A stretch of 32,000 nucleotides of DNA from Candidatus Arthromitus sp. SFB-mouse-Japan (GCF_000270205.1 NC_015913.1:840001-872000); one strand, 5' to 3'; shown: positions 11,132 to 32,000, counted from the stretch's first letter. Notes: generated from the letters alone by a model not told the origin. Numbers and translations are program-made.

Positions 11132-11153
11132 TTTAAAATAATCCCCTCTTTTA

Positions 11154-12101: not shown

Positions 12102-12120
12102 AAATTAAATCACCCCATTT

Positions 12121-13204: not shown

Positions 13205-13243
13205 AAAGTATTTATACTTATCTGTAGTAAATATAAATACTTT
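13205..13243 (-). terminator. Weak candidate terminator / stem-loop after the response-regulator gene
   Basis: Perfect 12-bp inverted repeat AAAGTATTTATA (13205-13216) and TATAAATACTTT (13232-13243) with a 15-nt loop. The stem is almost all A:T and the U-tract is short, so support is low. Confidence 0.3.
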
Positions 13244-13247
13244 GATT

Positions 13248-14777
13248 TTAATATTTTTTCATATTTCTTAAAGTTGATGGACATACACCAAAATATTTTT
13301 TAAATTTCCTATAAAAATAACTCGTATCTATATAACCTACAGATCTTGCAATATCGTTAATCCTCATATTTGTATTCAATATAAGATCCTTTGCTTTAGT
13401 ATTTTTAATCTTGTTTAAATACTCAGAAAATGAAACACCAACTTCTTTAGTAAATATTTGTCCTAAATAAGAACTATTTATGTTGTATTTTTGTGCAAGT
13501 GTTTTTAAACTTAATTCTTTATGATAATTTTTATTTATTAGATTGATAACTTGTCTAATTACAGGACTATAACAAACATCAGTATTATTCATAAGTTCAA
13601 TTATTTCTCTAAGCTCGCTTGTAATAAATGTTTTAACATTTTCTCTAGTATTTTCACTACAAAGTTCTAATATCATATTGCCTAAACTATCATCTTCATA
13701 TTTATCACTTGACTTTTTTAATTTGAATTCTTCAAGTATGTTGTGTATTAAAAATATTATTTTTATACAAAGATCGTAAATATTCTTAGGACTCAGCTGA
13801 TTGTTGTCAAAAATATTTTCAATATAATTTTCAAGCTCGTAGAGTTTTTTCTCTATTATCAACTTGTTTATATTTTCAAGTTCTTTTGAAAATGTTAAAT
13901 TGTTATCATTAATATAATTCAAAGAGTATCTATCAAGACAAATGTTACTTCCCTCTGTAAGCATATATTTATTCAAAGCTTTTGCTATATCATAAGTGAA
14001 TTCGATTTTATCGACACTATCTGTTAAATCTCCAATTGATATAAAAACTTTCTGGTTTAATTTTTCAATTATATTATTTTTAACTTCTTCATAGTAATTC
14101 TTTATTTCTAAATACTCAGTATGTTTATTCCAAGAATTTATTATAATTATTTGACCGTCATATCTATGTAAAATTTCATATCCTTCTTTAAAAATTCCTT
14201 TAAATATATTTTCTATATATAGGGTTAGATCTTTTTTACCCTTATTTATAAATGTTATGATTGCAACAGTGTAATTTTTATGTTTAAGAGAAAAATCTAA
14301 ATGATTCTCAATTTTTACTAATTCTTCCTTAGATGCATTTCCGTTTATATATTGAAATAAAATTCTATTTTTAGTTAATATCTTATTCTCTATGTTCTTA
14401 TTGTTATTTATCTCCATCACTATTTTATTTAAAGTTAATTTAAGTTCATCCTCATCTATGGGTTTTAAAATATAATTATCAGCACCATATTTTATGGCTT
14501 CTTTTGCATAGGAAAATTCATCATATCCACTTATAATAATAAATCTAGTTTTATCGTTGATAGATTTAATCCTTTTTAATAATTCAAGTCCGTTTAACTT
14601 AGGCATATTTATATCACTAATAATAATATCAACTGGATCTTCCGTAAATTTCTCAATTGCATCTTTCCCATTGCTCGATGTTTTAGTAACTTTTAGATCG
14701 AGTTCCTCCCAGTCTAATATATTTAATAGACCTTCGATTATTAATTTTTCATCATCAACTAACATAACTTTATTCAT
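13248..14777 (-). CDS. Two-component response regulator with AraC-type HTH output (YesN-like)
   Basis: The receiver domain has MLVDDE...ISDINMPKLNG. The C-terminus has an AraC HTH (YFYRKFKKYFGVCPSTLR). The track ORF starts at a GTG at 14792. I prefer the ATG at 14777 (MNKVMLVDDE), which lies 7 nt after the kinase stop. Confidence 0.88.
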   Translation of the reverse strand: MNKVMLVDDEKLIIEGLLNILDWEELDLKVTKTSSNGKDAIEKFTEDPVDIIISDINMPKLNGLELLKRIKSINDKTRFIIISGYDEFSYAKEAIKYGADNYILKPIDEDELKLTLNKIVMEINNNKNIENKILTKNRILFQYINGNASKEELVKIENHLDFSLKHKNYTVAIITFINKGKKDLTLYIENIFKGIFKEGYEILHRYDGQIIIINSWNKHTEYLEIKNYYEEVKNNIIEKLNQKVFISIGDLTDSVDKIEFTYDIAKALNKYMLTEGSNICLDRYSLNYINDNNLTFSKELENINKLIIEKKLYELENYIENIFDNNQLSPKNIYDLCIKIIFLIHNILEEFKLKKSSDKYEDDSLGNMILELCSENTRENVKTFITSELREIIELMNNTDVCYSPVIRQVINLINKNYHKELSLKTLAQKYNINSSYLGQIFTKEVGVSFSEYLNKIKNTKAKDLILNTNMRINDIARSVGYIDTSYFYRKFKKYFGVCPSTLRNMKKY

Positions 14778-14784
14778 GATAAAC

Positions 14785-16524
14785 CTACACACCTTTACAT
14801 GGTATTTTTATAATAACAATATTTTCACCTTCATCATTAGTCATTAAGGATATACCATACCCTTTACCATATTCTAATAAAATTCTCTTATGTACGTTAA
14901 TTATTCCCATAGAATTATTATTGCTATATATGTCATTTTGAATTTTATGATTTATTAAGTTCCGTTTTTCCTCATCAATACCTATTCCATTATCTATTAT
15001 TTTAATAAGTATAACATCAGAATTTATAGAAGAGATAAGTATCTTTAAAATATTATCGCTATTCTCAAAATTTATCCCGTGAATAAAATAATTTTCAATT
15101 AATGGTTGCAGTGTAAATTTTGGTATCCCTTTGTCTTTAAGTGAATCATCACATTCTATATAAAAATCAAATAAATCATTGTACCTAAATTTAAATAACT
15201 CAACATATTTAGTGCAATATTTAAGCTCTGTATTTATCGTTATGATATTTTTATCTTTTAACTGATTTCTAAATAACACAGATAATATATAAAGCATCTT
15301 TCCAACTTCTTTATCGCCATTACATATTGCCTTCATCCTTATGGACTCAAGTGTATTATACAAAAAGTGAGGATTTATTTGATTTTGTAAAGATATCATT
15401 TCTGCTTTTTTAAGCTCTAATTCCGCTCTATATCTCTTATCTATATGGGTGTTTAAATCTTTACACATTTTATTAAAATTATCTGCTATATAATTTATTT
15501 CATCTAAATCTGAAGTCAAAGGTATTTCAATGTCTAAATTTCCGTGCCTAACTTTATCCATAGCATTTAAAATTTCGTTTGTCCTATTACCTAGATTTTT
15601 AATTTTAAAGAAAGCTATTAATTGAGATAAGAATATGAGAGATAATGCTATAAAAATTATCAAAGCTATACTACCATATAGATTTTCTATATTTTTAGAT
15701 TCCATCATCGATATAACTGTAAGTCCATCTTTATTCAAATACGTTTTAATATAGTAAAGTGTATTTAGCATTATTTTTTTGTCATCATCATGATGAATCA
15801 CATCTTCATAATACATATAAGGCTCATATCCTAATTTTTCATCCGAATCATATACGACATAACCTATATTATTTAAAATTAAAACATTAGACTTTTGATC
15901 ATACTTTTCTAACACTTTCTTCAGGTATTCCAAATTATAAGTTAGAATCATTAATCCTTTGGTTTCTAAATTAATTGGATCATTGATTTCTTTTAAAAGA
16001 CTTATACTATTTTTATCTGTTAGTATATTTAGCAATCCTACATCACTATAAAAATCCTCTTTATTAACCTTTGTTACATTTATTTGATTTGATCGATTGA
16101 ATACACTTTTGGTATTCATATTAAAACTCACAAATCCAATTTCTTTTAAATTCTCATTTGACATAAATGAGCTTCTCACAAATTTTTCAATCCCTATATG
16201 ATAAGATGAATTACTCAATGACAGCTTGTCTAACTTTTGAGTTAAATAGTTTATTGTGTCAGCATTTAGAAATTTAATTATATCCTCCACAACAAAATCA
16301 TCAGTATAAATATCATTAACAATTCTTAACGAATGATTATAAATATACTCAAGTTCATTATCAACATCATTTAAAATTTTCTCATTAATATACAATTGAG
16401 ATTCTTTAACATTTGAAATTAAATATCTCATTAAGTAAATATCTAAAGTTAACATTAAAAAAATGACTGTGATTGTATTTATCCAAAAAATTTTTTTGTA
16501 AACTTTGGATTTATTTTCAACCAT
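14785..16524 (-). CDS. Sensor histidine kinase (YesM-like; two TM segments, extracellular sensor, HAMP, His_kinase and HATPase domains)
   Basis: 579 aa. N-terminal TM (ITVIFLMLTLDIYL) and a second TM (IALIIFIALSLIFLSQLIAFF) flank a sensor domain of about 260 aa. The motif NQINPHFLYNTLESI carries the phospho-acceptor His of the LytS/YehU-type class. DNGIGI marks the ATPase domain. RBS AGGAGA is present. Confidence 0.88.
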   Translation of the reverse strand: MVENKSKVYKKIFWINTITVIFLMLTLDIYLMRYLISNVKESQLYINEKILNDVDNELEYIYNHSLRIVNDIYTDDFVVEDIIKFLNADTINYLTQKLDKLSLSNSSYHIGIEKFVRSSFMSNENLKEIGFVSFNMNTKSVFNRSNQINVTKVNKEDFYSDVGLLNILTDKNSISLLKEINDPINLETKGLMILTYNLEYLKKVLEKYDQKSNVLILNNIGYVVYDSDEKLGYEPYMYYEDVIHHDDDKKIMLNTLYYIKTYLNKDGLTVISMMESKNIENLYGSIALIIFIALSLIFLSQLIAFFKIKNLGNRTNEILNAMDKVRHGNLDIEIPLTSDLDEINYIADNFNKMCKDLNTHIDKRYRAELELKKAEMISLQNQINPHFLYNTLESIRMKAICNGDKEVGKMLYILSVLFRNQLKDKNIITINTELKYCTKYVELFKFRYNDLFDFYIECDDSLKDKGIPKFTLQPLIENYFIHGINFENSDNILKILISSINSDVILIKIIDNGIGIDEEKRNLINHKIQNDIYSNNNSMGIINVHKRILLEYGKGYGISLMTNDEGENIVIIKIPCKGV

Positions 16525-16612
16525 ATTTTATCTCCTAAAATTAACTCATGTTTAATTACACGAATGTGGGATAAATTAATTTTTTATGGAATTATTATAT
16601 AATTTTAATTAA

Positions 16613-16640
16613 ATTATACAGTAATGTTTGAATTTGTAAA
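16613..16640 (-). promoter_or_regulatory. Candidate sigma-A promoter for the kinase/regulator operon
   Basis: On the minus strand, -35 TTTACA (16635-16640), a 16-nt spacer, and a perfect -10 TATAAT (16613-16618). It lies about 90 nt upstream of the kinase ATG. Confidence 0.4.
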
Positions 16641-16656
16641 CCTTTTAAATTATATT
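16628..16656 (+). promoter_or_regulatory. Candidate sigma-A promoter for the DUF624-GH125 operon
   Basis: On the plus strand, -35 TTGAAT (16628-16633), a 17-nt spacer, and -10 TATATT (16651-16656). It lies about 37 nt upstream of the ATG at 16693 and overlaps the divergent minus-strand promoter. Confidence 0.35.
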
Positions 16657-16692
16657 AGTATTAGATTAGTAGAAAATTTTTGGAGGTGGTGT

Positions 16693-17376
16693 ATGCTAAA
16701 CGAAATCTTTAATTTTGAAAAATTGTTTGATACTTTCAACTATGTATTTTGGTTTTTCATACTAAATCTTCTCTTCTGGATATTTAATATCCCAATTATT
16801 TTATTTTTCATGTTTATAGGAATTAGTAGAATAACTACATATTTCCCTCTATTTTTAGTTTGTTTATTACCGACTGCACCAATATTTACAGTGTTATTAT
16901 ACTGTGTGAACAAGCTTTACAAAAATAAGAATATATCTATACTATCTGACTTTATACGAGGATTTAAATTAAACTTTATACAAGCATTGGTTGTGTGGAT
17001 AATTGAATTGATAATTTTATTTATCATTTATTCAAATATTAAATTTTTTACACTAATATTCGACAGCTTAGTACTAAATGGATTATTTATAGGAATTTTA
17101 ATTTTACTTGGAATTATTACACCATTTTTATTTTTAATTATCAGTAGATTCTCTATGAAAAATCTAGATGTATTAAAACTTGGTTTTACTTTGGCATTTA
17201 CAAGACCTATTTTAACTATAACAAATACACTTTTAATACTTGTATTTTTAATTTTATTTGAACTTAATAGTGCAATTTTATTGTTTGTTTCATCTATATT
17301 TGCGTTTTGCTTGGTGTTTATTAATAGAACAGTATTTAGTGAACTTGAAGAAATTTCAAGGAGAAATAATAAATAG
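16693..17376 (+). CDS. YesL-like DUF624 integral membrane protein
   Basis: The track ORF starts at 16624. I prefer the ATG at 16693, which lies 6 nt after GGAGG (16683-16687) and gives a 227-aa product. It is a polytopic hydrophobic protein of the size and pattern of DUF624 proteins that accompany YesM/YesN-regulated sugar loci. Confidence 0.7.
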   Translation: MLNEIFNFEKLFDTFNYVFWFFILNLLFWIFNIPIILFFMFIGISRITTYFPLFLVCLLPTAPIFTVLLYCVNKLYKNKNISILSDFIRGFKLNFIQALVVWIIELIILFIIYSNIKFFTLIFDSLVLNGLFIGILILLGIITPFLFLIISRFSMKNLDVLKLGFTLAFTRPILTITNTLLILVFLILFELNSAILLFVSSIFAFCLVFINRTVFSELEEISRRNNK

Positions 17377-17391
17377 GAAAGGATATTTATT

Positions 17392-18684
17392 ATGAATAAA
17401 TGTACGTATAAAAATTTAGATGTATTTAAAGATATTATTAAAAAAATAGCAGTTGATCTATCTAACTCCATTAATGATGAGAAGCTAAAAAAAATGTTTT
17501 GTAATTGCTTTATAAATACTCTTGAAACCACGATGAGTTTTGAAAAAGACGATACATTTGTAATAACTGGAGATATTCCAGCAATGTGGTTACGAGATTC
17601 AACTTCTCAGGTTGAACATTATATACCCTTTATAAAGCAATATCCAGAGCTAAAAGATATGTTTATCGGTCTAATTAATAGACAAGTTAAATGTATTTTA
17701 ATTGACCCTTATGCTAATGCATTTAATAAAGAACCGAATGGTAATAAATGGGATAATGATATTACGGAGGATAATCCTTGGGTATGGGAGAGAAAGTATG
17801 AAATAGATTCACTTTGTTTTCCTATAAGATTAATATATAAATATTGGAAAGAGTCATCGGATTCTAGCTTTTTTAACGATGATATTTTAAAAGTTTTTAA
17901 GACAATTATTGGAATTTGGAAAACCGAACAATACCATTTTGAGGAATCAAAATATAAATTTCAGAGATTAAATTGTTCTGAAAGTGATACTTTATCCCAC
18001 AATGGTATGGGAAATCCTGTAACTTACACTGGCATGACTTGGTCAGGATTTAGGCCTAGTGATGATTCTTGTGAATATGGATATCTTGTTCCTTCCAATA
18101 TGTTTTGTGTCGTCGTGTTATCATATATATCAGAGATAGCTAATGAAATTTATAACGATAGCGATTTAAGTAAAAATGCACTTAATCTTAGGGATGAAAT
18201 TGAGAATGGAATAAATAAGTTTGCTATTATTAACCATAAAATTTATGGAAAAATATATGCATATGAAGTTGATGGATTTGGAAATTATAACCTAATGGAC
18301 GATGCAAACGTTCCAAGTTTACTCTCTATACCATACATTGAATATAGAAATTTTGATGACAAGATTTATCAAAATACTAGAAAATTTATTTTAAGTAATA
18401 ATAATCCTTATTATTATGAAGGATCTTTCACATCAGGAATTGGAAGTCCTCATACACCAGAAAATTATATATGGCATATAGCTTTATGTATGCAAGGAAT
18501 TACAACTAAAGATAAAAATGAAGTTAAAGAATTACTAAATACAATTATCAGATGTGATGGTGATACTAATTATATGCATGAAGGATTTAACAAGGATAAT
18601 CCCAAAGAATTTACTCGTGATTGGTTTGCTTGGGCTAATTCACTTTTTGCAGACTTTATATATAAAAAATTAATAAAAGAGTAG
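17392..18684 (+). CDS. GH125 exo-alpha-1,6-mannosidase (DUF1237 family), cytoplasmic
   Basis: 430 aa with no signal peptide. Conserved segments [29 protein letters not shown] and [10 protein letters not shown] are typical of the metal-independent GH125 mannosidases characterised from C. perfringens and S. pneumoniae. Confidence 0.88.
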
Positions 18685-18704
18685 TCGTAAATGACTACTC
18701 TTTT
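18675..18704. terminator. Bidirectional rho-independent terminator between the convergent GH125 and GH31 genes
   Basis: Stem AAAAGAGTAGTC (18675-18686) pairs with GACTACTCTTTT (18693-18704), with loop GTAAAT. T-runs follow on both strands (TTTTTTAT on plus, TTTTATTA on minus). Confidence 0.75.
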
Positions 18705-20945
18705 TTATATAAAAACATATTTTGATTGTTCCTCATAATCAAGTCCCTTATTTAAAAAATGTTCAATAACTTCTTTCATATTTACCTTAATTACTTTAAA
18801 ATTATATTTTCCATTTCTATATTCATTTGTTATTCCATCATCATAATAATAAGTCCCTTCTGCAACATTTCCATAAACATTAAAAGTTACAGTATTTGGT
18901 CTGTTTTTAGTATTTAAATACTTTTCTTCATAAGTTGGTATTATACTTCCCTCTCTAATAAAAATAATGACTGTATTTAAATCACATTTTAATCTGTATC
19001 TCTGCCCACCATTATAAATTTTATTAGTCATAAAATCATACCATTTACCCTTCGGAAGATAAACAGTTTTATATATTTCACTCTTGTGCAATACAGGAGC
19101 AATTAATATAGAATTTCCAATCATAAATTCTTCTTTCATATTAATAACATTTATATCATTTTGATATTCCATGATTAGAGGCCTAAACATAGGAAGACCA
19201 TATTTATGAGATTCATAAAAACATGTATAGATATAAGGTATTAATCTGTATCTAAGTTCTATAGCATTCCTTGCTATTTTCTCAGCTCTAAAACCAAAAG
19301 ACCATGGCTCCTGCCTTCTTGTATATTTATTTGAATGATTCCTAAAAATAGGAAGAAATGTTCCAACTTGCATCCACCTTATAAATAATTCCTCATCACA
19401 ATCTAGCGAAAATCCCCCAACGTCATTCCCAACAAAAGAAAAACCACTAATTCCTAAGTTACAATTCATAGATATGGACATCCGAAGTTGACTCCATAAA
19501 CTCATATTATCTCCAGTCCAAACTGATGTATATCTTTGACCACCAGAATATATGGCTCTACTCATAGAAAAACTTCTTAAATTTGGATTTAATTCTTCTT
19601 GTGCTTCATAGGAACATCTGCTCATTTCAAATCCATATCTATTATGAAACTCCTTATGCTCTAAAACACCATAATCACTATTATGTATACAATTTTCAGG
19701 TATAGTTTTAAAATCATTATTAAATACACATGGTTCATTCATATCATTCCAAATTCCATCTATATTATAGTCAGATATAAATTTTTTGAGTTCACTCTTC
19801 CACCATTCCCTCGATTGTTTATTTGAAAAATCAGGAAAGGAACTATCATTAGGCCATACAGCTCCAATATATACAGTGCCATCAGGATTCTTTACAAAAT
19901 GATCACCTTCTATACCATTTTTATAAATATTATAATTTTCATCAACTTTTACTCCAGGATCTAATATTGTTATAGTTCTAATTCCTTTATCTTTTAAAGT
20001 TTTTATAAGTGATTTAGCATCTTCAAACTCTGGAACTTTAAAAGTCATAACTCTAAAACCATCCATATAATCTATATCAAAGTAGATTACATCAATCGGA
20101 ATTTCCTTATCTTTAAATGTATTTACTACATTAAGAATTTCTTTACTATTCATATAACTAAATCTATTTTGTTGATATCCGAGACTCCATAATGGTGGCA
20201 TATCCATTTTACCTGTAAGATTTGCATATTCACAAATAACTTTTTTTATATTTTTACCTAATATGAAGTTGTATTGTATATGACCACCTATAGCTCCAAA
20301 AAATATTCTATCTTCATAACTTTTACCCATATCAAAAAAACTTCTAAAGCTGTTATCAAAAAATATTCCATAAGTTTTTTGATCGTTCAATGCAACATAA
20401 AAAGGTATTGTTTTATAATAAACCAATGATTCATCATCTGTCTCTGGATCATCAATATTAAAATTTTCTATATAATAACCCTTTTTATTTAAATCTCCAC
20501 CTTTTTCTCCAAATCCATAGTAAGCATAACAGTCATCAATTTTTGAAATATAAACACATCCATCTTCATCTTTAAATGATGGTTCAAAATCTTCGCATAA
20601 AATTTTGCCAGAAATATCTTTAAACATAACTCTTGAGTCAATTTTGTTAATGCACGTTATTATTTTATCTCCAGATATAACTATTTCATCTTCTATATTA
20701 TGGATTGTAAGAGTTATGTCTTCACTTTTTAATACAGTTGAATTTGTATTTGATTTTTCATCGCAAATACCAGCAATAAATATAGATACAATATTTTGAT
20801 TAATGTATTCCACACAAACTTTTCTAGAATTATAAATTATAGTTGTTACGTTACCTTTTGAAATAAATTTTTCATAAATAAGAGAGTTGCCTTTATATGA
20901 TTTGAATTTTTGATTTAAATGCTCTCTATACTTTAATTGTTCCAT
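18705..20945 (-). CDS. GH31 family glycoside hydrolase (alpha-glucosidase-like), cytoplasmic
   Basis: 746 aa with no signal peptide. The GH31 nucleophile motif DGIWNDMNEP and the acid/base region SVWTGDN are present. RBS AGGAGA is 8 nt upstream of the ATG. Confidence 0.88.
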   Translation of the reverse strand: MEQLKYREHLNQKFKSYKGNSLIYEKFISKGNVTTIIYNSRKVCVEYINQNIVSIFIAGICDEKSNTNSTVLKSEDITLTIHNIEDEIVISGDKIITCINKIDSRVMFKDISGKILCEDFEPSFKDEDGCVYISKIDDCYAYYGFGEKGGDLNKKGYYIENFNIDDPETDDESLVYYKTIPFYVALNDQKTYGIFFDNSFRSFFDMGKSYEDRIFFGAIGGHIQYNFILGKNIKKVICEYANLTGKMDMPPLWSLGYQQNRFSYMNSKEILNVVNTFKDKEIPIDVIYFDIDYMDGFRVMTFKVPEFEDAKSLIKTLKDKGIRTITILDPGVKVDENYNIYKNGIEGDHFVKNPDGTVYIGAVWPNDSSFPDFSNKQSREWWKSELKKFISDYNIDGIWNDMNEPCVFNNDFKTIPENCIHNSDYGVLEHKEFHNRYGFEMSRCSYEAQEELNPNLRSFSMSRAIYSGGQRYTSVWTGDNMSLWSQLRMSISMNCNLGISGFSFVGNDVGGFSLDCDEELFIRWMQVGTFLPIFRNHSNKYTRRQEPWSFGFRAEKIARNAIELRYRLIPYIYTCFYESHKYGLPMFRPLIMEYQNDINVINMKEEFMIGNSILIAPVLHKSEIYKTVYLPKGKWYDFMTNKIYNGGQRYRLKCDLNTVIIFIREGSIIPTYEEKYLNTKNRPNTVTFNVYGNVAEGTYYYDDGITNEYRNGKYNFKVIKVNMKEVIEHFLNKGLDYEEQSKYVFI

Positions 20946-22640: not shown

Positions 22641-25600
22641 CTAAGTTAAAATTACTTCTTTAATATTTTTTTCAATATCTTCTTTGTGAATTATTCCAGA
22701 ATATTTATTGAAAAACTCCCTAATTTCCTCAACCAATTGTTGTTTTTTATAATATCTGCTTTCATTTTTATCTCCAAAACGAGAAACTGGTTTCATAATT
22801 TCATTAATTTCTGTGCCTATTGATTTAACCTCAGCATCTCTGAACATATTTTTAATGTATTTCCTAAACAAATCTTCATTTAATCTTTGTTCATTTATAA
22901 GTCTTTTAATGTCTTTTTCCATTTCTTCTGAAACAAATTCTTTCCAATCATTAATTACTTCATCTTCAACATTAACTTTATTAATGAAATCAGTAATAAG
23001 TTTCTTCTTGCTTTTTAACATAAATTTATCAATAAGATCTTTTTTATTCCTCAAATCTGGACTTGATTTTACAGCTTTATCTATTGCAACAAAAATTTCC
23101 TCATCTTTATTATTTGATTCGTGATATTTTATAAGTAAATTTAAAATATAATCGATATTAACTTCAATTTGTTTTACAAGTTCCATTTCAAAAATAATGT
23201 CATCATTAATATTTTCTTTATCATTATTTTCAACATTTCTTACTTTTTCATATAAATCATTGTACTTACCTGTGAAATCTTGAAATTCAATTTCTGTTAA
23301 AATTTCATTTCCTTCAAAATCATCAAAACTTGACAATATATTTCTAAGTTTTAAAATTTCACCGAACAAATATATGAATTCTTTTTCTGCATTCTCTCCA
23401 ATAATTTGGTCAGAAAAATTATTAACTAATTCTTCAATCATTTCCCCGTAACCCCTATGATAATTCCCATTCTCATCTTCATATCCGTAATAATAATCCT
23501 CATAAGTTTTCAAAATTACAGTTTCTCTTATACTATTTCTTTCACTATCATTACCAAAAATAATAAGTGCATCATCTGTTTCCTTTATTAGATCCCTGAA
23601 ACAAACAATATTACCGAATTTCTTTACTGAATCTAATATCCTATTTGTCCTACTAAAGGCTTGAATAAGTCCATGGGCCCTTAAATTTTTATCAACCCAT
23701 AAAGTATTTAAAGTTGTAGCATCGAAACCAGTCAAAAACATATTTACAACAATAAGTAAATCAAGTTTTCTATTTTTCATTTTACGAGAAACGTCTTTAT
23801 AGAAATTTGGGAATTTTTCGCTTGAGGTATCATATGATGTACCAAATTCTTTATTGTAATCTTTTATTGCCATTTCCAAAAAATCTCTTGAAGAATCTGA
23901 AAGTCCATCTGTATCATCAGAATTTTCATCATCCATAAATTCAGCGTTACTTTCTTCATTAACTCCATAGCTATAAATTAGAGATATTTTTAATTTCTTA
24001 CTTGGATCTTCTTCCATTTGCTTTTTGAATTCCAAATAATATTTTTTTGCTGCCTCAATACTTGAAACTGCAAAAATCGAATTAAATCCATTAAATCCAT
24101 AACTTCTTTTTGTTTTTTGATTAAAATGCTCTAGAATATATTCAGTTACAGATGAAATTCTCTGAGGTGCAAGCAAAGCCTTTTCATAATCTATAGCACT
24201 AACTTTCTTGTCTGATATATTTTCTTTTATTTTCATCGTATTTATATAATCAATTTTAAAAGGAAGTACATTTCCATCATTTATGGCATTTACAATTGTA
24301 TAAGTATGAAGTCTATCTCCAAAAACATCTTGAGTTGTCTGCAAATCTTTAAATTTTCCATTAACAGAATTTTCTTCAAAAATTGGTGTTCCTGTAAATC
24401 CAAAAATAAAGTAATTCTTAAACTTCTTTGTAATAGCTCTGTGCATATTTCCAAATTGGTTTCTGTGGCACTCATCAAAAATCATTACAATATTTTTGTT
24501 ATAAATTGGATGATTTTCATTTTTTGAAATGAACCTATCTAATTTTTGAATTGTTGTAATTATAATTTTGTATTCATGGAAATTACCATTTTCATCTTTG
24601 TTCTCTAATTGTCTTTGTAGAGTTTTAGTGTTTTTACTTCCATTTGCCGAACCTTTTTCATAACGTTCATACGCTTCGATTGTTTGATAATCCAAATCCT
24701 TTCTATCAACAACAAATAAAACCTTGTCTATATACTCAAGTCTTGATGAAAGCTGAGAAGTTTTAAAAGATGTTAGAGTTTTTCCACTACCTGTGGTATG
24801 CCAAATATAACCCCCTGCTTTTATAGTTCCCATTTTTTTATAATTTTTAGAAATTTGTATTCGTTTTAATATTTCTTCTGTAGCCATAATTTGATAAGGT
24901 CGCATGACAACTAGTTTATTTTCAGATGTAAATACACAATACTTAGTTAAGATATTTAAAAGTGTGTGTTTTGCAAAAAATGTTCTAGCAAAATCAACAA
25001 GATCTGGAATTATTTTATTTTTACTATCTGCCCAAAAGCTAGTAAACTCGAAGGAATTACTAGTTTTATTCTTTTTGTTGGCTTTTTCCCTATCCTTAAT
25101 TGCAGATTCACGAGTTGTGTTTGAGTAATATTTCGTATTTGTACCGTTTGAGATAACAAAAATTTGTATATATTCATACAAACCGTCTCCAGCCCAAAAA
25201 CTATCTCTTTGATATCTTTCAATCTGATTGAAAGCCTCTTTTAAAGCAACCCCTCTTCGCTTAAGTTCAACATGAACAATAGGAATTCCATTAATAAGTA
25301 TCGTTACATCATATCTATTTTTATATTTTCCATCATCTGTTGAATATTGATTGATAACTTGAAGGAAATTATTATGTATATCTTTTTTGTCAATCAACAA
25401 AATATTTTTACTTGATCCATCATCTCTTTTTAAAATTTGAACAAAATCCTCTTGTATTTTTCTTGACTTTTGTACAATTCCCTCATTTTTATTAGCGATA
25501 CAATCTTTATAAAAATTTTTCCACTCATTATTTGAAAATTTGATATTGTTTAATTTTTCGAGTTGGAATCTTAAATTCGAAATCATTTCTTCAGAAGAAT

Positions 25601-25763
25601 TAATATCTTTTGCATATTGATATCCTTGAGAAGATAAAATTTCTATAAATTCCTTCTCCAAAGATGCTTCACTTTGGTAAGCTCCAGATCGTTTTTTTTG
25701 AGATGTATATTCAGTTACAAGCGTACTTTCATCTGTAGAAACTATAATATTATAATTGCTCAT
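22641..25763 (-). CDS. hsdR: Type I restriction enzyme R subunit (HsdR), Type IC-like size class
   Basis: About 1040 aa. The N-terminal nuclease motif is D...VHVELKRRG (PD-ExK). Helicase motif I is TTGSGKTLTS and motif II is FDECHRNQFG. The track starts at a TTG at 25766. The ATG at 25763 lies 7 nt after AGGGGA. A 91-bp gap separates it from hsdS. Confidence 0.93.
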   Translation of the reverse strand: MSNYNIIVSTDESTLVTEYTSQKKRSGAYQSEASLEKEFIEILSSQGYQYAKDINSSEEMISNLRFQLEKLNNIKFSNNEWKNFYKDCIANKNEGIVQKSRKIQEDFVQILKRDDGSSKNILLIDKKDIHNNFLQVINQYSTDDGKYKNRYDVTILINGIPIVHVELKRRGVALKEAFNQIERYQRDSFWAGDGLYEYIQIFVISNGTNTKYYSNTTRESAIKDREKANKKNKTSNSFEFTSFWADSKNKIIPDLVDFARTFFAKHTLLNILTKYCVFTSENKLVVMRPYQIMATEEILKRIQISKNYKKMGTIKAGGYIWHTTGSGKTLTSFKTSQLSSRLEYIDKVLFVVDRKDLDYQTIEAYERYEKGSANGSKNTKTLQRQLENKDENGNFHEYKIIITTIQKLDRFISKNENHPIYNKNIVMIFDECHRNQFGNMHRAITKKFKNYFIFGFTGTPIFEENSVNGKFKDLQTTQDVFGDRLHTYTIVNAINDGNVLPFKIDYINTMKIKENISDKKVSAIDYEKALLAPQRISSVTEYILEHFNQKTKRSYGFNGFNSIFAVSSIEAAKKYYLEFKKQMEEDPSKKLKISLIYSYGVNEESNAEFMDDENSDDTDGLSDSSRDFLEMAIKDYNKEFGTSYDTSSEKFPNFYKDVSRKMKNRKLDLLIVVNMFLTGFDATTLNTLWVDKNLRAHGLIQAFSRTNRILDSVKKFGNIVCFRDLIKETDDALIIFGNDSERNSIRETVILKTYEDYYYGYEDENGNYHRGYGEMIEELVNNFSDQIIGENAEKEFIYLFGEILKLRNILSSFDDFEGNEILTEIEFQDFTGKYNDLYEKVRNVENNDKENINDDIIFEMELVKQIEVNIDYILNLLIKYHESNNKDEEIFVAIDKAVKSSPDLRNKKDLIDKFMLKSKKKLITDFINKVNVEDEVINDWKEFVSEEMEKDIKRLINEQRLNEDLFRKYIKNMFRDAEVKSIGTEINEIMKPVSRFGDKNESRYYKKQQLVEEIREFFNKYSGIIHKEDIEKNIKEVILT

Positions 25764-25857
25764 CAAACCATCCCCTATAAAAATTATTTATTTCCTAAAA
25801 TATCTTCAAAAAAACCAAAAAATTATCTATATAATAATCGTAATATTTTTATAAACT

Positions 25858-27045
25858 TCAATCTTTATGCTCTGAAATATTTTTAAAAGTCAAAAGTTTG
25901 TCCCTGTAATACTCATATTGTTTCTTCCTCGCATCAATTTCTGCCGGAAGTCCTTCGGATATATCATTACATAATTTATCAAATTTATCGAGAATTGAGA
26001 CTATTCTTTCCTGTTCTGGAAGTGAAGGAACACATACAGGAAATTCAATAATCACATTTTGATTAAGATGTTTTATTGTTCCACCAGTTAACCTACTTCG
26101 TGCAAAATTCATCAATTTGGGTGATCTTAAATAATAAAACAAATATTTACTTAGAACAACACTTTCATCATTGCATCTTACAACAAATATACCACTATTT
26201 AATGTTGATGGTTTTATAAGCTTATTAATATATGCAATTTTTCCTAGCGTACCATCCTTAGTTACTAAAATATCTTTTTCCTTAATCTGAATATTTTTAT
26301 CTTGTAAATACCTTTCTTCTGATACAAAATAACATTTAGAAAAATCAACGCTACCATTTACAAAATTCACACCTGTTATTAGTTGATATTTTCCGTCTAT
26401 TAAATACTCTTCCTTTGTTAAACCTTGCCAACCTATTCTAGCCTTTATTGTTGCAATATCCTTCAATTTTACTCTTTCAATATCATCACCAAAAGTAAGC
26501 AAACTATCTCTATAGAATTCATATTGTTTCCTTCTTGCTGTAAGCTCTGCTGTAAGCTCTGCTGTAAGCTCTGTAAACAAATCTAAAATATGTACAATCT
26601 CTTCTTGTATTTCTAATGGTAGGATTGGGATTTTAATATTACTTATATCTCTTCCATAAACATGAGCAACACCAGCTCCTTTTTTAAGTGAATAAATTAA
26701 ATCCTGTTTATTTTTTAAAAAATAATATGTGTACTTTACACTTAATATGGAATAATCTCTTATATCCACAGTAAAAGAATCCGCACAAAATATTGGTTTG
26801 TCCCAATAACTTACAAATCCCGCATAAGCACCTGAACCAGCTACTGTTATACAATTACCATTCCTATTTGAAACATTGTGATAAAATGCTGGTTTTTGTC
26901 CTCCAGATATTACTGGTACCTCACCCCCAACTGCATTTGTTGATTTTATAGACTGCCCTCTCTTAAAACCACAAAGTTCTCCCAATTCTTTCCACTCAAC
27001 ACCATCAGGACAAAGTTTTTCTATTAACTCATCAAGTCTACTCAC
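25858..27045 (-). CDS. hsdS: Type I restriction-modification specificity subunit (HsdS) with two target-recognition domains (TRDs)
   Basis: Two variable TRDs are separated by a conserved central helix (ILDLFTELTAELTAELTARRKQYEFYRDSLLTF). A homologous C-terminal helix follows (ILDKFDKLCNDISEGLPAEIDARKKQYEYYRDKLLTF). The track starts at a TTG at 27060. I prefer the GTG at 27045, which has GAGGGGGA 5 nt upstream and overlaps the hsdM stop as GTGAGTAG, suggesting translational coupling. Confidence 0.9.
   Translation of the reverse strand: MSRLDELIEKLCPDGVEWKELGELCGFKRGQSIKSTNAVGGEVPVISGGQKPAFYHNVSNRNGNCITVAGSGAYAGFVSYWDKPIFCADSFTVDIRDYSILSVKYTYYFLKNKQDLIYSLKKGAGVAHVYGRDISNIKIPILPLEIQEEIVHILDLFTELTAELTAELTARRKQYEFYRDSLLTFGDDIERVKLKDIATIKARIGWQGLTKEEYLIDGKYQLITGVNFVNGSVDFSKCYFVSEERYLQDKNIQIKEKDILVTKDGTLGKIAYINKLIKPSTLNSGIFVVRCNDESVVLSKYLFYYLRSPKLMNFARSRLTGGTIKHLNQNVIIEFPVCVPSLPEQERIVSILDKFDKLCNDISEGLPAEIDARKKQYEYYRDKLLTFKNISEHKD
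26538..26575 (-). repeat. Perfect 12-bp x 3 tandem repeat inside the hsdS central conserved region (encodes ELTA-ELTA-ELTA / TAEL repeats)
   Basis: The plus strand reads GCTGTAAGCTCT three times (26538-26549, 26550-26561, 26562-26573), followed by a partial unit. The repeat is in frame and encodes the TELTAELTAELTARR segment. Confidence 0.95.
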
Positions 27046-28612
27046 TCTTGTCCCCCTCAATTTCTGCGATAATCTTATCTATCTCTTTCCTCAAAACTTC
27101 CTCTCGTGCAACAATCTCTTTAATCTCTTCGTTTAATTTTACAATATCAATTTTCTCTCTCGTATCTTCCTGCTCAACATAAGTGGACACAGAAAGATTA
27201 TATTTTTCATTCCTTATTTCCTCAAGGCTTACGAGTTTCGCAAAATATTCAATATCTTTTCTTTCAGCATAAGCCTTAACAATATTCTCTATATTTTCTT
27301 TGCTGAGTTTATTGTTATTAGTAGCTTTTTCAAATTCCTTAGATGCATCAATAAACAATACATTCTTATCTTCCTTACTTTTTTTGATAACCATTATGCA
27401 AGTTGCAATACTTGTTCCAAAAAATAAATTACTTGGGAGCTGAATAATAGTATCAATAAAATTTCCTTCAACTAAATATTCTCTAATCTTTTGCTCCGCT
27501 CCCCCTCTATACATAATTCCAGGGAAACATATAATCGCCCCAACCCCATTAGGTGCAAGCCATGAAAGTGCGTGCATAATAAAAGCAAGATCAGCTTTAG
27601 ATTTTGGAGCCAAAACTCCTGCAGGGGCAAACCTTTCATCGTTAATTAATACGGGATTATTATCCCCTTCCCATTTTATTGAATAAGGAGGATTGGAAAC
27701 TATTGCTTCAAAAGGTTCTTCATCAAAATGTTTTGGATTAATAAGTGTATCCTCACATTCAATTTTAAATTTTTCATAACCGATATCATGTAAAAACATA
27801 TTAATTCTACAAAGATTGTAAGTTGTTATATTAATTTCTTGTCCAAAATATCCACGTCTAACTCCATCTTTACCAAGAATTTTAGCAGCTTTTAATAAAA
27901 GCGAACCACTCCCACAACACATATAATAAATTTTATTGACCTCCTTCTTACCATGAACAACAATTCGTGTAAGAAGTTCAGAAACCTCTTGAGGAGTAAA
28001 AAACTCTCCCCCACTTTTTCCAGCATTAGAAGCATACATACTCATCAAAAACTCGTAAGCATCACCAAAAGCATCAATAGTATTTTTTCTATAATCTCCA
28101 AGATTCATATTCCCAATACCATCTAAAAGTTTAACAAGTTTTTCATTTCTCTTAGCAACAGTTGAACCAAGCTTATTGCTATTCACATCAAAATCATCAA
28201 ATAATCCTTTGAGATCTCCTTCACTTTCATGACCCTTAGCCGAATCTTCAATATTTCTAAAAACTTTTTCTAAAGTTTCATTTAAATTTTCATCATCTTT
28301 TGCCCTAGCTCGAACATTTTCAAAAAGTTCTGAAGGAGGGATAAAGAACCCTTTATCATTAATCATTTCTTCTCTAATTCCTTCAGCCATTTCATCACTA
28401 ATTTTTGCATAATCAAAATCAGTACTGCCTGCTTCAATCTCATTTCTATTAATATCATTTTTAAAATTCTCAGATATGTAACGATAAAACATTGTACCTA
28501 AAACATAAATTTTAAAGTCCCATCCATCAACACTTCCTCTTAACTCATCAGCTATACTCCATATTGCCCTGTGTAATTCATCTCTCTCTTGTTCCTTTTT
28601 ATTATCCGCCAT
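27038..28612 (-). CDS. hsdM: Type I restriction-modification N6-adenine DNA methyltransferase subunit (HsdM)
   Basis: 524 aa. N-terminal HsdM_N-like helix bundle. Motif X is GEFFTPQEV. Motif I region is KIYYMCCGSGSLLL. Motif IV is VSNPPYSIKW. RBS GGAG is 8 nt upstream of the ATG. Confidence 0.92.
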   Translation of the reverse strand: MADNKKEQERDELHRAIWSIADELRGSVDGWDFKIYVLGTMFYRYISENFKNDINRNEIEAGSTDFDYAKISDEMAEGIREEMINDKGFFIPPSELFENVRARAKDDENLNETLEKVFRNIEDSAKGHESEGDLKGLFDDFDVNSNKLGSTVAKRNEKLVKLLDGIGNMNLGDYRKNTIDAFGDAYEFLMSMYASNAGKSGGEFFTPQEVSELLTRIVVHGKKEVNKIYYMCCGSGSLLLKAAKILGKDGVRRGYFGQEINITTYNLCRINMFLHDIGYEKFKIECEDTLINPKHFDEEPFEAIVSNPPYSIKWEGDNNPVLINDERFAPAGVLAPKSKADLAFIMHALSWLAPNGVGAIICFPGIMYRGGAEQKIREYLVEGNFIDTIIQLPSNLFFGTSIATCIMVIKKSKEDKNVLFIDASKEFEKATNNNKLSKENIENIVKAYAERKDIEYFAKLVSLEEIRNEKYNLSVSTYVEQEDTREKIDIVKLNEEIKEIVAREEVLRKEIDKIIAEIEGDKSE

Positions 28613-28680: not shown

Positions 28681-28717
28681 TAAAAACAAAAAAAGACAAT
28701 TAAAACTAATTGTCTTT
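28681..28717 (-). terminator. Rho-independent terminator of the RloC-like gene
   Basis: Perfect 11-bp stem: AAAGACAATTA (28692-28702) pairs with TAATTGTCTTT (28707-28717), with a 4-nt loop. On the minus strand TTTTGTTTTTA follows. The stem overlaps the stop codon at 28716-28718. Confidence 0.75.
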
Positions 28718-30938
28718 AAGGATGTATCTTATATTTTTTAGAATATTCTTTGAAATGTTTTTCACCATGATTTTTTTCTAAACATGACTTAAAATCATTA
28801 ATTAGTTCGATCTTAGATATTCCACTTAAATCATGTTCAAAATCATCAATTGAATGAGAGTTAACATCACATGCTTTTTTGAAAAATGGACTATTTTCAT
28901 AAAAACCACCTTGATCTAAACAATTAAATTTAATATATGTTTCTAAAATTCTCCTCATAGGATTATATAATATATCTGATGATGCGTTATTATTATAAAG
29001 ATTTCCCAATTCTTTCCAAAGCAAATCATAACTTGTTGTAAAATCATCTTCTCTTTTCTTTACATATTCAATATTAGTTTTCTTACCATCCGATATTAAT
29101 TTAATAAATTTACTAATTTTATTATCATTTATATATTCTAATTTATCATCTTCATACTTTCTATCATGTTTAACATTTAAATAGAAATGGCAATTATGAG
29201 TTAGAATAATTAATTTTTTATCATCTTCTCTTTCAATCTTTCTCATAATTCTTTGCAAATCATTAATTATCAAATACTGTTTAGTATCATCATTAGAACT
29301 CATAGGGTCATCAAATACCATAACCCTAATACTCCCAGGTACTTCTCTTTCAATATCCTTAAATTGCTCAATGAAATATAAAAATGCAATTATATTTTTT
29401 TCGCCAGTAGATAATTCCTTAACACTACGATACTTAGATGATCTTAAACATTTCACCCTATAAAAGGCCCTCTCTTTCTGTTCATTCTCATTATAAAGAG
29501 AAAGTTCAAATGATACAAATGTTCTTAATTTCTTATTTATATTATTAACTGCCTTTTCTACATTTTTCATTCTATTTTTTAAATTTATAATATCTTTTTT
29601 AAAATTATCTATTTCCCCCATAAGTTTTTTACGTGCTTCTTCTTTATTAAAATAATCTTCTTCTACATTTTTTTTATGATATTCTAAATTATTCATTTTT
29701 TCAATTTCAACACCATATTTAAAACCATCAAGATATTTTTTGATTTCATTATATCTTATTTTTTCTCTTGCTTCTTTTTTTATTTTTAATAAATCATTTG
29801 AATTATGTTCTCTAACTAACTTATTATATTCTGCAATATAATCCGATAATTTTTTATCTTCATTTAATAATTCAGGTAAATCCAATTCAATTTCATCAAA
29901 AAGTTCACTTCTCTTTTTTTTCAATTTCTGAATATATTTTTCTAACAAGTTAATATAATATAATTTCTTTTCATTTATTTTCTTATCTATTTCTTGGACT
30001 CTTTTATTTTTATCGGTATATAAATTATTTAAATCAATATTAATTGATTCTAGTATTTTTTTATATCCTTCTAATTCCTTACATTTATCCTCTATCTTAT
30101 TTTCAAATTGTTTTATTTCTGTTCCAGAAAAATAATTTTCCAATTCATTTAATATATCCGCTGTTATTATACTTCCACAAAATCCACATTTTTCACCGAC
30201 CTTATGGATGTCAAGTCCATACTTAGCAAAATTAGACTTCTTAGGATCGTTATTTAATTTACTAATAATTTTTTGGGGTTTGACTCTATCTTTTAAAATT
30301 TGCTCTACCTCATTTGATATCTGAATAATATTTATAGGTGTTTCGTATATCTCATTAAGATTTTTTTTCTCTAATTTTAAAATATTATTAAACTTATCAA
30401 TTTCATATTCAGATAATAGACAATTATTTCCCATATTTTTAATATCATTTTTTATATCATTAATATCATATTTATTTCCTTCATGTATTTTATAGCTGCA
30501 ACCTTTTATTTCACTTGCAAAACGTTTTAAAGCATTATCTATATATATTTTTTGTTTTTTAAATTCAGCTATCCTTTCTTCTTTCATACTAAATAAATTT
30601 TTCTCATTATTTAAAGGATTGTTTATCTTTTTATTAATTTCTTCAATCTTTTTTTGATTTTCTAGAATTAATGACTCTTTTTTTTCAATTTCTTTATTTA
30701 TTTTAGAATTTTCATTACTTAGGGTAATACAATTTAAATTTTCATTTTTACCTATTAAAATATCAAATCCCTGAAAAATGCGAATATCATATTTTTCATT
30801 ATTTTCGTATTGTTTTTGTAATAAATTTGTAATGGTTGATTTTCCTGTTCCATTTTTACCATATACAAAATTTACTTTCTTATCAAATTCAATTACATTT
30901 TCATTAAATAGATCTTCATTGCTTAAATCTATTTTCAT
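28716..30938 (-). CDS. rloC: RloC-like anticodon nuclease candidate: AAA_13/ABC-type ATPase with long coiled-coil insert, CxxC zinc hook and C-terminal PrrC-type tRNase motifs
   Basis: 740 aa. Walker A is GKNGTGKST (aa 27-35). A Lys/Glu/Asn-rich coiled coil of about 420 aa spans aa ~75-495 and carries CGFC at aa 251-254 (nt 30177-30188). ABC signature LSTGE is at aa 509-513, Walker B RVMVFDD at aa 538-544, and the H-loop LTHN at aa 579-582. The C-terminal domain has RRILE (aa 662-666) and NSH (His695, nt 28854-28856), which matches the Arg-x3-Glu...His pattern of PrrC/RloC. RBS AGGGGGTG is 8 nt upstream of the ATG. Confidence 0.7.
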   Translation of the reverse strand: MKIDLSNEDLFNENVIEFDKKVNFVYGKNGTGKSTITNLLQKQYENNEKYDIRIFQGFDILIGKNENLNCITLSNENSKINKEIEKKESLILENQKKIEEINKKINNPLNNEKNLFSMKEERIAEFKKQKIYIDNALKRFASEIKGCSYKIHEGNKYDINDIKNDIKNMGNNCLLSEYEIDKFNNILKLEKKNLNEIYETPINIIQISNEVEQILKDRVKPQKIISKLNNDPKKSNFAKYGLDIHKVGEKCGFCGSIITADILNELENYFSGTEIKQFENKIEDKCKELEGYKKILESINIDLNNLYTDKNKRVQEIDKKINEKKLYYINLLEKYIQKLKKKRSELFDEIELDLPELLNEDKKLSDYIAEYNKLVREHNSNDLLKIKKEAREKIRYNEIKKYLDGFKYGVEIEKMNNLEYHKKNVEEDYFNKEEARKKLMGEIDNFKKDIINLKNRMKNVEKAVNNINKKLRTFVSFELSLYNENEQKERAFYRVKCLRSSKYRSVKELSTGEKNIIAFLYFIEQFKDIEREVPGSIRVMVFDDPMSSNDDTKQYLIINDLQRIMRKIEREDDKKLIILTHNCHFYLNVKHDRKYEDDKLEYINDNKISKFIKLISDGKKTNIEYVKKREDDFTTSYDLLWKELGNLYNNNASSDILYNPMRRILETYIKFNCLDQGGFYENSPFFKKACDVNSHSIDDFEHDLSGISKIELINDFKSCLEKNHGEKHFKEYSKKYKIHP

Positions 30939-31140
30939 ATTAACTACACCCCCTATTTTTGATAATATTTAATTATCTATAAAATTTCTCAATTAAAATT
31001 ATACAACATCACCTTATAACATGAATTTTGTAAATGCATATGTTTATATGTACTTATTTCTTTATTTTCTTTAAATAAATCAATAGATTTCATAATATAA
31101 TTTAAATACTTCTCGTAAATATCTAAAGATATCCATTTTA

Positions 31141-32000
31141 TTATTTTGATCTTATCTGTAGATTCAATGTAAAGAAAAAATCACCGCTATCCTCGAAAAT
31201 CTCAAGCATATGATATCTAGATGTACTCGGCGAATCGAATTTAGATTTATAATATAAATAATTTTCTAATATTTCATTATGATAAATTTTATCCAATAAA
31301 ACAACTTCTCCTGAGTTTTTAGTCACCATAATTCCACCATTAACTGAATATTTTCCATCCCATTCTTCGGAAGGGAAAAATCCAAAACATATTCCATATA
31401 AAAAATCTATTAACTTTTTTCTTAGAAAAACTTCGTCATTTCCATGATTCGACTTTAAAAACGCTTTTTGTAAATCCTTTTCATTTTCAACATAAGAATA
31501 AAGCAATGCATTGGCTAATAATTTATCCATCGATGAATCTATTAACCTAATATTCCTTTCCAAAGTATTACTAACGATTTTATAAAATTCAATTTTACCT
31601 TCAAGTTCTTTGATCTTATAAATCCTATCTAACAATTTCTTTTTTGTTTTTATACGATTAACTTCTTGCATTTTATCTTTATCAAAACCTTGAACTTTAT
31701 GCATGAAATTCGTATGCTTACTTGCATTCAATAATGTTGCAGGACTTCCAAATTGAGATTTGAGACTATATGTAATATTAACATCCTTACAAATTTTGTT
31801 ATCCTTTACATTTGCACCAAGATCTGCTTTACTTTTAGCTTTACCTTTAATGCTATATCCATCTGTAAAATTTTCAATAAATTCATTTAGTGAGGGAAGC
31901 TTTATTGAACCTCCGTTCAACGGTTTCTTATTAATAAGTGTTTTTAATAAGAATTCTTTCGCTTTTATTACAGCATCCAAAGATACCACACCAATCTTTT
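31141..32000 (-). CDS. Probable type II restriction endonuclease, HpaII-family-like; the 5' end probably lies beyond the right edge
   Basis: The track ORF begins at a GTG (31989), but the frame stays open to the window edge (..K-I-G- upstream). The segments LKSQFGSPATLLNASKHTNF and DSPSTSRYHMLEIF...LNLQIR resemble, from memory only, conserved blocks of the HpaII restriction-endonuclease family. It was not verified by search. Confidence 0.4.
   Translation of the reverse strand, partial: KIGVVSLDAVIKAKEFLLKTLINKKPLNGGSIKLPSLNEFIENFTDGYSIKGKAKSKADLGANVKDNKICKDVNITYSLKSQFGSPATLLNASKHTNFMHKVQGFDKDKMQEVNRIKTKKKLLDRIYKIKELEGKIEFYKIVSNTLERNIRLIDSSMDKLLANALLYSYVENEKDLQKAFLKSNHGNDEVFLRKKLIDFLYGICFGFFPSEEWDGKYSVNGGIMVTKNSGEVVLLDKIYHNEILENYLYYKSKFDSPSTSRYHMLEIFEDSGDFFFTLNLQIRSK

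Follow-up and report, generated by a model that had tools for sequence, protein, structure and literature searches.

The 32,000-nucleotide stretch of the Candidatus Arthromitus sp. SFB-mouse-Japan genome analysed here (NC_015913.1:840001-872000; the window, with positions counted from its first letter) carries on its minus strand a gene, rloC-like, whose 740-amino acid (aa) product is, in our analysis, probably an abortive-infection tRNase of the RloC family with an internal switch formed by an ATPase and a zinc hook. The protein is a member of a known defence family, within which it falls into a divergent subfamily, and does not represent a novel type of system. Segmented filamentous bacteria (SFB), gut symbionts that attach to their host and cannot be cultured, have a 1.6-Mb genome and, to our knowledge, phage defences that have barely been described. 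An earlier interpretation made from the DNA alone, the sequence-only reading, had proposed at this position an RloC-like tRNA anticodon nuclease serving as a backup to an adjacent Type IC-like restriction-modification (R-M) system.

The rloC-like gene and its placement in the RloC family

28716..30938, minus strand: rloC-like gene, 740 aa plus stop codon (open reading frame list, translation and exact-sequence look-up)
30947..30954, minus strand: ribosome-binding site AGGGGGTG, 8 nt 5′ of the rloC-like ATG (direct reading)

The open reading frame (ORF) of 740 aa at 28716-30938 described in the sequence-only reading is intact and begins with ATG; its strand, minus, is added here as a correction. 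GC content is 22 % in the gene versus 27 % in the window. An exact sequence match identifies the product as BAK56573.1 of SFB-mouse-Japan, labelled in databases 'cation transport ATPase' or 'AAA family ATPase', and the identical intact 740-aa protein is held under four NCBI accessions, SFB-mouse-Japan among them. What remains to be gained for this entry is that "AAA family ATPase" can be re-annotated as "RloC-like".

The Pfam profile AAA_13 (PF13166), which the sequence-only reading had named as a check, matches the protein nearly end to end (3.6e-87; protein 13-704, profile 7-696 of 713), and scores 294.2 bits over the whole model, the cutoff being 36. Among the PADLOC models PDC-S06 (PDLC04897) ranks first, also over the full length (1.3e-199), further matches being weak (LmuB, 6.8e-13; JetC and PtuA via the P-loop). 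No model by the name of RloC or PrrC was among the matches of the PADLOC scan, and the NCBIfam scan of the protein returned none above cutoff. The closest relatives are 35-57 % identical and belong to Fusobacterium, Enterococcus, Streptococcus, Pasteurellaceae, Erysipelotrichaceae and others; 25 homologues with 34-57 % identity to the 740-aa protein make up the alignment A1. Reference RloC carries the labels COG4694 and Pfam AAA_13, and a 36 %-identical relative is labelled 'wobble nucleotide-excising tRNase' by the Joint Genome Institute (JGI), a label that JGI also gives to members of the canonical RloC clade.

That canonical clade was entered through the protein P0121, itself a single 28 %-identical match to an unreliable fragment obtained by optical character recognition from the supplement of PMC2610378; P0121 is a close homologue of a Marinobacter protein in the alignment of that paper. 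The C-termini of the clade take the form ...FNFLFHQIY...NFGNNARKFLEAF-X39-...DRVNNEYSHLAGVFE. Profile alignment of A1 with 15 canonical-clade proteins by hhalign gave a probability of 100 % and an E of 1.5e-52 over 611 columns, pairing the two P-loops, HKVGEKCGFCG with HK.KR..CAFCG, LSTGE with LSEGE, FDDP with IDDP, THN with THN and NPMRRILETY with NNARKFLEAF. Together with the full-length AAA_13 match and the C-terminal segment shared with canonical RloC, this alignment supports, at the level of sequence, the RloC-like identity that the sequence-only reading had assigned.

ATPase head, helical insert and CxxC motif

30834..30860, minus strand: Walker A / P-loop GKNGTGKST, aa 27-35 (invariant; pairs with the canonical RloC P-loop)
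29526..30716, minus strand: mostly helical insert, aa 75-471, splitting the ABC ATPase head (AlphaFold2, Foldseek)
30177..30188, minus strand: CGFC, aa 251-254, putative zinc hook (invariant; pairs with canonical CAFC)
29400..29414, minus strand: ABC signature LSTGE, aa 509-513 (invariant; pairs with the canonical clade)
29307..29324, minus strand: Walker B / D-loop VMVFDD, aa 539-544 (invariant; pairs with the canonical clade)
29193..29201, minus strand: H-loop THN, aa 580-582 (invariant; pairs with the canonical clade)

Every motif quoted in the sequence-only reading was found at the residue position given for it. The ABC motifs that RloC has in common with PrrC (Walker A, signature, Walker B/D-loop and switch His) are all present, and within A1 (n = 25) the ATPase motifs are invariant together with H245, C251, C254, N659, R662, E666, N693, S694, H695, D699 and H728. 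The AlphaFold2 (AF2) model of the full-length protein, with a mean predicted local distance difference test score (pLDDT) of 82.6 and a predicted template modelling score of 0.49, has a β/α head and an all-helical C-terminal domain. By AF2 and Foldseek the insert between the ATPase half-sites is ~400 aa long and resembles the coiled-coil arm of Rad50 and SMC proteins; the split head and helical insert of the sequence-only reading are thus borne out by prediction, with ~400 aa replacing its ~420-aa coiled coil. Its location of the CxxC near the middle of the insert also stands, AF2 placing CGFC, the sole CxxC of the protein and invariant in A1, in a short turn that links helices 232-244 and 260-270. 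A helical ATPase insert with a central CxxC, as in RloC, is accordingly seen in the AF2 prediction, in A1 and in the alignment with the canonical clade.

Foldseek searches with the full model returned Rad50 (of Mre11-Rad50-Nbs1) and SMC/condensin heads with coiled coils as the best PDB matches, followed by the ATPases of Lamassu (LmuB), retrons and JetC. Residues 239-316 showed weak, non-significant profile matches to the Rad50 zinc-hook structures 6zff and 1l8d. Sequence searches of the PDB with the single sequence and with a profile found no solved PrrC or RloC, only the P-loop regions of Rad50, SMC and AriA.

The C-terminal domain

28719..29057, minus strand: all-helical C-terminal domain, aa 628-740, predicted anticodon nuclease (AAA_13 match; AF2 pLDDT 77.9)
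28941..28955, minus strand: R662-R-I-L-E666, putative Arg-x3-Glu of the catalytic triad (conservation; pairs with canonical NNARKFLEAF)
28854..28877, minus strand: K688-A-C-D691-V-N-S-H695, putative triad His within a variant of R-x2-N-x3-H (conservation; pairs with DRVNNEYSH)

Residue conservation was counted over 205 non-redundant C-termini of relatives. R662 and H695 are each conserved in 100 % and E666 in 97 %, as are K688 in 93 % (R in 2 %), N693 in 95 %, S694 in 92 %, D699 in 95 % and H728 in 99 %; position 691, Asp in the 740-aa protein, is N in 60 % and D in 38 %. For comparison of the triad we utilized the canonical-clade proteins and the Pfam profile in place of the GkaRloC and EcoPrrC sequences. 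Taken alone, aa 628-740 match AAA_13 profile positions 612-698 (8.6e-10, above the gathering score) and aa 596-740 match positions 585-697 (3.5e-13), and the C-terminus of canonical RloC falls on the same segment (positions 586-712, 5e-23).

A greedy local profile alignment against canonical RloC C-termini is collinear, its P of 0.047 being the best value obtained with the C-terminus only. It pairs DFTTSYDLLW with DYVTEFNFLF, NPMRRILETY with NNARKFLEAF and KKACDVNSHSIDDFE with DRVNNEYSHLAGVFE, so that K688..S694-H695-x4-F-E lies against R..S-H-x4-F-E of canonical RloC. Because the register is collinear, we consider R662, E666 and H695 to be the counterparts of the Arg-x3-Glu...His triad of RloC, as conservation, hhalign, the greedy alignment and the shared AAA_13 segment all indicate. 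The equation of these three residues with the triad, made in the sequence-only reading, was therefore retained through alignment to canonical-clade RloC (R-x3-E by hhalign, S-H by the greedy alignment). It had counted 29 residues from RRILE to NSH; E666 and H695 are indeed 29 positions apart but 28 residues lie between them. It had also named placement of this domain in a non-nuclease family as fatal to the assignment; the domain's own match is to the C-terminal segment of AAA_13 and no other family placement emerged.

When 1.84 billion representatives were searched using the C-terminal domain as query, 194 clusters at 50 % identity were identified. Among the best 150 of these 194 there was no protein of PrrC-sized architecture with this variant of the domain, all being of RloC length or fragments. 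The same search retrieved P0336, a 429-aa protein with an HsdS-like N-terminal start and an RloC-like C-terminal end, which represents either a mis-called fusion or a real rearrangement.

Proposed function

Beyond the family membership, domain order, catalytic-residue conservation and identity of neighbouring genes reported here, we infer tRNA cleavage, its trigger and cross-talk with R-M. The C-terminal domain would be an anticodon nuclease of the PrrC/RloC type (HEPN-like) fused to a Rad50-like ABC ATPase and, by analogy with Geobacillus RloC, the protein's own ATPase and zinc-hook switch would hold it silent. Upon phage infection a signal from DNA, for instance DNA ends or restriction that has failed or been inhibited, may throw the switch, whereupon R662, E666 and H695 would cut tRNA anticodon loops and the ensuing stop of translation would amount to abortive infection. 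Altered residues in the active site suggest room for another target or for weaker activity.

Genomic neighbourhood and linkage to R-M genes

31141..31989, minus strand: HpaII-type Type II endonuclease gene, 5′ neighbour of rloC-like (RE_HpaII 2.8e-56, profile 76-358 of 359; PADLOC REase_II)
28692..28717, minus strand: terminator-like hairpin with an 11-bp stem (2 G-C pairs) and U-run, starting from the rloC-like stop codon (RNA fold -9.7 kcal/mol, z -3.7)
27038..28612, minus strand: hsdM, Type I methyltransferase (TIGR00497 2.7e-222; Pfam N6_Mtase, HsdM_N)
25858..27060, minus strand: hsdS, with TAELTAEL in the central conserved region (Pfam Methylase_S, two stretches)
22641..25766, minus strand: hsdR of the EcoR124 (Type IC) kind (phmmer to EcoR124I HsdR, 2w00, 7.7e-250; EcoR124_C, T1R_D3-like, HSDR_N, SWI2_SNF2)

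On the minus strand the genes run in the order HpaII-type endonuclease, rloC-like, hairpin, hsdM, hsdS, hsdR, pdxS, pdxT. The Type IC call that the sequence-only reading had made for the neighbouring R-M system is well founded, since HsdR matches EcoR124I at ~7e-250 and carries the EcoR124_C domain (PF12008, 1.5e-53), HsdS contains TAEL repeats, and hsdM, hsdS and hsdR are all full length. Its statement that the gene is directly beside this system is correct as to adjacency, but a gap of 103 bp containing the terminator-like hairpin separates it from hsdM. A consensus terminator scan missed this hairpin because it has too few G-C pairs for the requirement of the scan. With a hairpin at its stop and before hsdM, rloC-like appears to be transcribed as a separate unit within a small defence island.

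Within HsdS, two perfect TAEL repeats of 12-bp units (26542-26565) follow a degenerate FTEL; the TAEL copy number of EcoR124-type enzymes fixes the length of the spacer in the recognition site. The hsdM and hsdS genes overlap by 23 nt (27038-27060), and the called starts of both hsdS and hsdR are TTG. The first ~75 codons of the HpaII-type gene lie past the end of the window, and a cognate methyltransferase was not seen within the window. The defence island adjoins pdxS and pdxT, and positions 2774-20945 are occupied by ordinary sugar metabolism genes, including a GH38 alpha-mannosidase, a GH31 glucosidase, an ABC sugar transporter, two ROK kinases and a two-component AraC-type regulator.

We surveyed the neighbourhoods of relatives at 79 loci, taking one genome per species. 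Type I genes were present within 10 kb at 12 of the 79 loci, and linkage of the relatives to R-M is thus recurrent but confined to a minority. The commonest families among direct neighbours were HsdS (7/72 upstream) and EcoR124_C-type HsdR (4/74 downstream), EcoR124_C being carried by each of the four HsdR directly downstream. Other direct neighbours include a few DNA methylases and endonucleases, the majority being unrelated. At six loci from Pasteurellaceae and Moraxella (L001-L003, L005, L031 and L078) the gene occupies the position of prrC, with hsdS on one side and hsdR on the other; its stop and the start of hsdR overlap (ATGA) in L002 (12090-12140) and L005, and the two ORFs abut in L003. 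These embedded loci carry the HsdM and HsdR nearest to those of the window (57 % and 42-43 % identity), together with an RloC-like protein of 40 % identity. In two Fusobacterium loci (L080 8001-12917; L082 1985-6876) 17 bp separate the homologue from an MmeI-family (Type IIG/L) R-M gene downstream of it, with a ResIII helicase and a T5orf172 protein following and a PDDEXK_9 / AAA-ATPase_like gene preceding. Relatives are also present on mobilizable and conjugative plasmids of lactobacilli.

These arrangements bear on an explanation modelled on PrrC, in which a latent nuclease is held inactive by physical association with the Type IC enzyme encoded next to it, the R-M system acting as the sensor, and is freed by an anti-restriction factor of the phage. 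Linkage to Type IC systems is invariable for PrrC, and linkage of RloC to R-M has been described as occurring 'rarely' but recurrently (PMC2610378, PMC3458546). The R-M system of the window is Type IC, its nearest HsdM and HsdR were found at the loci where the relative takes the prrC position, with overlapping or abutting ORFs in three of them, and every directly downstream HsdR is of the EcoR124_C kind. Against this, Type I genes accompany only the minority of relatives counted above, others stand beside MmeI-, EcoRI- or DpnII-type genes or nothing defence-related, the window gene lies 5′ of hsdM, outside the operon and followed by its hairpin, and the protein retains the RloC zinc hook which in GkaRloC is an internal silencer. 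We regard this explanation as unlikely; dependence on the Type IC enzyme in the manner of PrrC is possible, although the arrangement in the window does not indicate it. Coupling of the predicted RloC-type tRNase to the adjacent R-M system as a second-line backup, as the sequence-only reading had it, likewise stays only a suggestion, because most relatives are not beside R-M genes and the gene in the window has its own hairpin.

Divergence of the C-terminal domain and integrity of the reading frame

A number of observations weigh against the assignment of the protein as an RloC-type tRNase, the first group of which concerns the C-terminal domain. Default hhalign modes applied to the C-terminus only (from the H-loop) reached no significance against canonical RloC, and a hidden Markov model (HMM) of the subfamily built on aa 628-740 scored only 2-5 bits on canonical RloC proteins. 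Foldseek with the AF2 model of aa 596-740 (pLDDT 77.9) retrieved no solved fold at E < 1, HEPN included, and the loop around H695 is the lowest-confidence region of the full AF2 model. The HEPN motif is Rx4-6H. In the HEPN-type R-x2-N-x3-H motif the His is kept here, the Arg is replaced by Lys688 and the Asn by Asp691, and the counterpart of PrrC His295 is variable in the subfamily, being K642 in the 740-aa protein. R349, N352 and H356 of EcoPrrC are essential, and R349K and N352D are inactive (PMC3025547). The Glu-His gap is 28 residues here, and 26-28 in most of the subfamily, and falls outside the published Arg-X3-Glu-X36-52-His, a descriptive range over 72 RloC orthologues (PMC2610378); we treat the X28 spacing as a difference of the subfamily in a non-defining feature. 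Since K688, D691 and X28 depart from PrrC and RloC, neither nuclease activity nor its target is guaranteed.

By these sequence features, namely the Glu-His gap, the Lys and Asp changes, the variability at His295 and a total of only 194 clusters, the relatives of ~700-740 aa form a divergent subfamily. The table of the founding paper holds proteins of 702-712 aa from Fusobacterium, Staphylococcus and Listeria (PMC2610378), so the subfamily was evidently taken there as RloC, and the Listeria row of the alignment in the same paper resembles it.

The departures listed above could be read as pointing to a defence ATPase of the Rad50/SMC kind, with a C-terminal domain that has another RNA or DNA target or is a non-catalytic module, RloC being a label of ancestry only. 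The domain is without significant direct similarity to canonical RloC C-termini and without a structural match to a solved HEPN or other nuclease, and both the Arg to Lys and the Asn to Asp change inactivate PrrC. PADLOC rates the family as the candidate PDC-S06 only, with a weak similarity to LmuB, and an E. coli PDC-S06 protein is among the high scorers outside the known defence set in a language-model paper. The conservation of the domain argues otherwise, since R662 and H695 are invariant, E666 is nearly so, and K688, N693, S694, D699 and H728 are kept at 92-99 % of the 205 C-termini, as in an active site. The domain is moreover collinear with canonical RloC on the same Pfam segment, and the register N-x2-R-x3-E followed by [KR]-x2-[ND]-x2-S-H-x4-[FL]-E agrees between them. 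We therefore hold an ATPase with some other or no catalytic activity to be decidedly doubtful.

The second group of observations concerns the reading frame.

30813..30817, minus strand: A5 run at codons 40-42 of the rloC-like gene (A6 apparent in SFB-mouse-Yit and NYU)

The SFB-mouse-Yit and NYU proteins are 712-715 aa in length and begin MVKMEQENQPLQIYYKKQYENN, with the +1 frame being used upstream of the A-run. Both have Walker A out of frame, as A6 in place of A5 would give, and this change could represent inactivation at the level of the strain, phase variation or a homopolymer error common to both. Among the 79 loci, 7-8 have the homologue in two ORFs (L013, L029, L031, L042, L062, L077 and L078) as a result of a frameshift or, in L062, of an interruption of ~1 kb. 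At L029, from Gemella haemolysans, a second, intact paralogue lies 5 kb from the split homologue. A decaying or switched-off remnant of a reduced genome, with no current function, would accord with the one extra A by which Yit and NYU lose the frame across Walker A, with the split homologues and with the low GC content of the gene, but is highly improbable given that the 740-aa frame is intact here behind a strong ribosome-binding site, that the identical intact protein stands under four accessions and that the catalytic and ATPase residues are all kept.

Implications

Taking the protein as a predicted RloC-type tRNase, SFB-mouse-Japan keeps a three-part island composed of this protein, an HpaII-type endonuclease and a Type IC R-M system. 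For the study of RloC more widely, the relatives reveal a sizeable subfamily in which Lys substitutes for the HEPN Arg and the active-site loop is shortened, and certain members of which lie exactly where prrC does in Type IC operons. Such natural gene pairs make cross-talk between RloC and R-M, a long-standing question, testable.

A more far-reaching proposal, which we consider quite unlikely in its entirety, is that the ~700-740-aa subfamily of Firmicutes, Fusobacteria and Pasteurellaceae is a distinct anticodon-nuclease lineage with a compacted site (K-x2-[N/D]-x-N-S-H and a 28-residue gap), in which the zinc-hook switch would be combined with PrrC-style control by the Type IC enzyme and, in SFB, slippage at the A-run of codons 40-42 would turn the gene on and off. 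Joint control of this kind is hinted at by the hsdS-rloC-hsdR embedding and the stop/start overlaps in Pasteurellaceae and Moraxella. If the proposal were true, the tRNA target or cut site would be unlike that of both PrrC and GkaRloC.

Comparison with known systems

Rad50, SbcC and SMC proteins share with the 740-aa protein the head fold, the helical arm and the CxxC hook; the coils of Rad50 and SbcC are however far longer, and those proteins are without a C-terminal nuclease-like domain. The partner of Rad50/SbcC is Mre11/SbcD. A true Rad50/SbcC was rejected on the grounds that there is no SbcD beside the gene, whose neighbours are the HpaII endonuclease and hsdM, and that the protein has an extra C-terminal domain of 113-145 aa. 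Lamassu requires the partners LmuA and LmuC. LmuB itself was set aside as a weak match (6.8e-13, via the SMC-like head) with no LmuA or LmuC among the neighbours, as was an AAA_13 protein of conjugative transfer, transfer genes being absent nearby. PDC-S06 of PADLOC is matched over the full length, but is a computational candidate with no described mechanism.

PrrC (EcoPrrC, 396 aa) resembles the 740-aa protein in joining an ABC ATPase to a C-terminal nuclease domain with Arg-x3-Glu...His and in having a Type IC R-M neighbour, and the Glu-His gap of 28 here is nearer to the 31 of PrrC than to that of RloC. PrrC is nonetheless an ABC ATPase of ~400 aa without a coiled-coil or zinc-hook insert, whereas the protein described here has a helical insert of ~400 aa with a CxxC. 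In addition prrC is located between hsdS and hsdR and its product is silenced by the R-M enzyme, whereas in the window rloC-like lies 5′ of hsdM with its own hairpin (rloC-like, hairpin, hsdM, hsdS, hsdR).

RloC was first seen in the hsd loci of Campylobacter jejuni (PMC2610378), and its biochemistry comes from GkaRloC and the RloC of Acinetobacter baylyi (PMC2610378, PMC3458546). Mutation of R692, E696 or H737 kills the nuclease of GkaRloC and mutation of the zinc hook, which includes C291, activates it (PMC2610378); ATP and DNA ends (linear DNA) activate the enzyme, the zinc hook acting as internal silencer (PMC3458546). The protein differs from RloC in its length (740 aa versus about 800-890, GkaRloC having 804 aa), in its Glu-His gap (28 residues versus 39 in the canonical clade and 40 in GkaRloC), in three positions counted back from the His (Lys for Arg at -7, either Asp or Asn at -4, and at -2 an additional Asn that is invariant), in being without a conserved equivalent of PrrC His295 and in a C-terminal domain that escapes detection in direct HMM comparison. 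It is like RloC in its split ABC head, helical arm, central CxxC following a conserved His, C-terminal N-x2-R-x3-E and S-H, and in the occasional linkage of its family to R-M genes.

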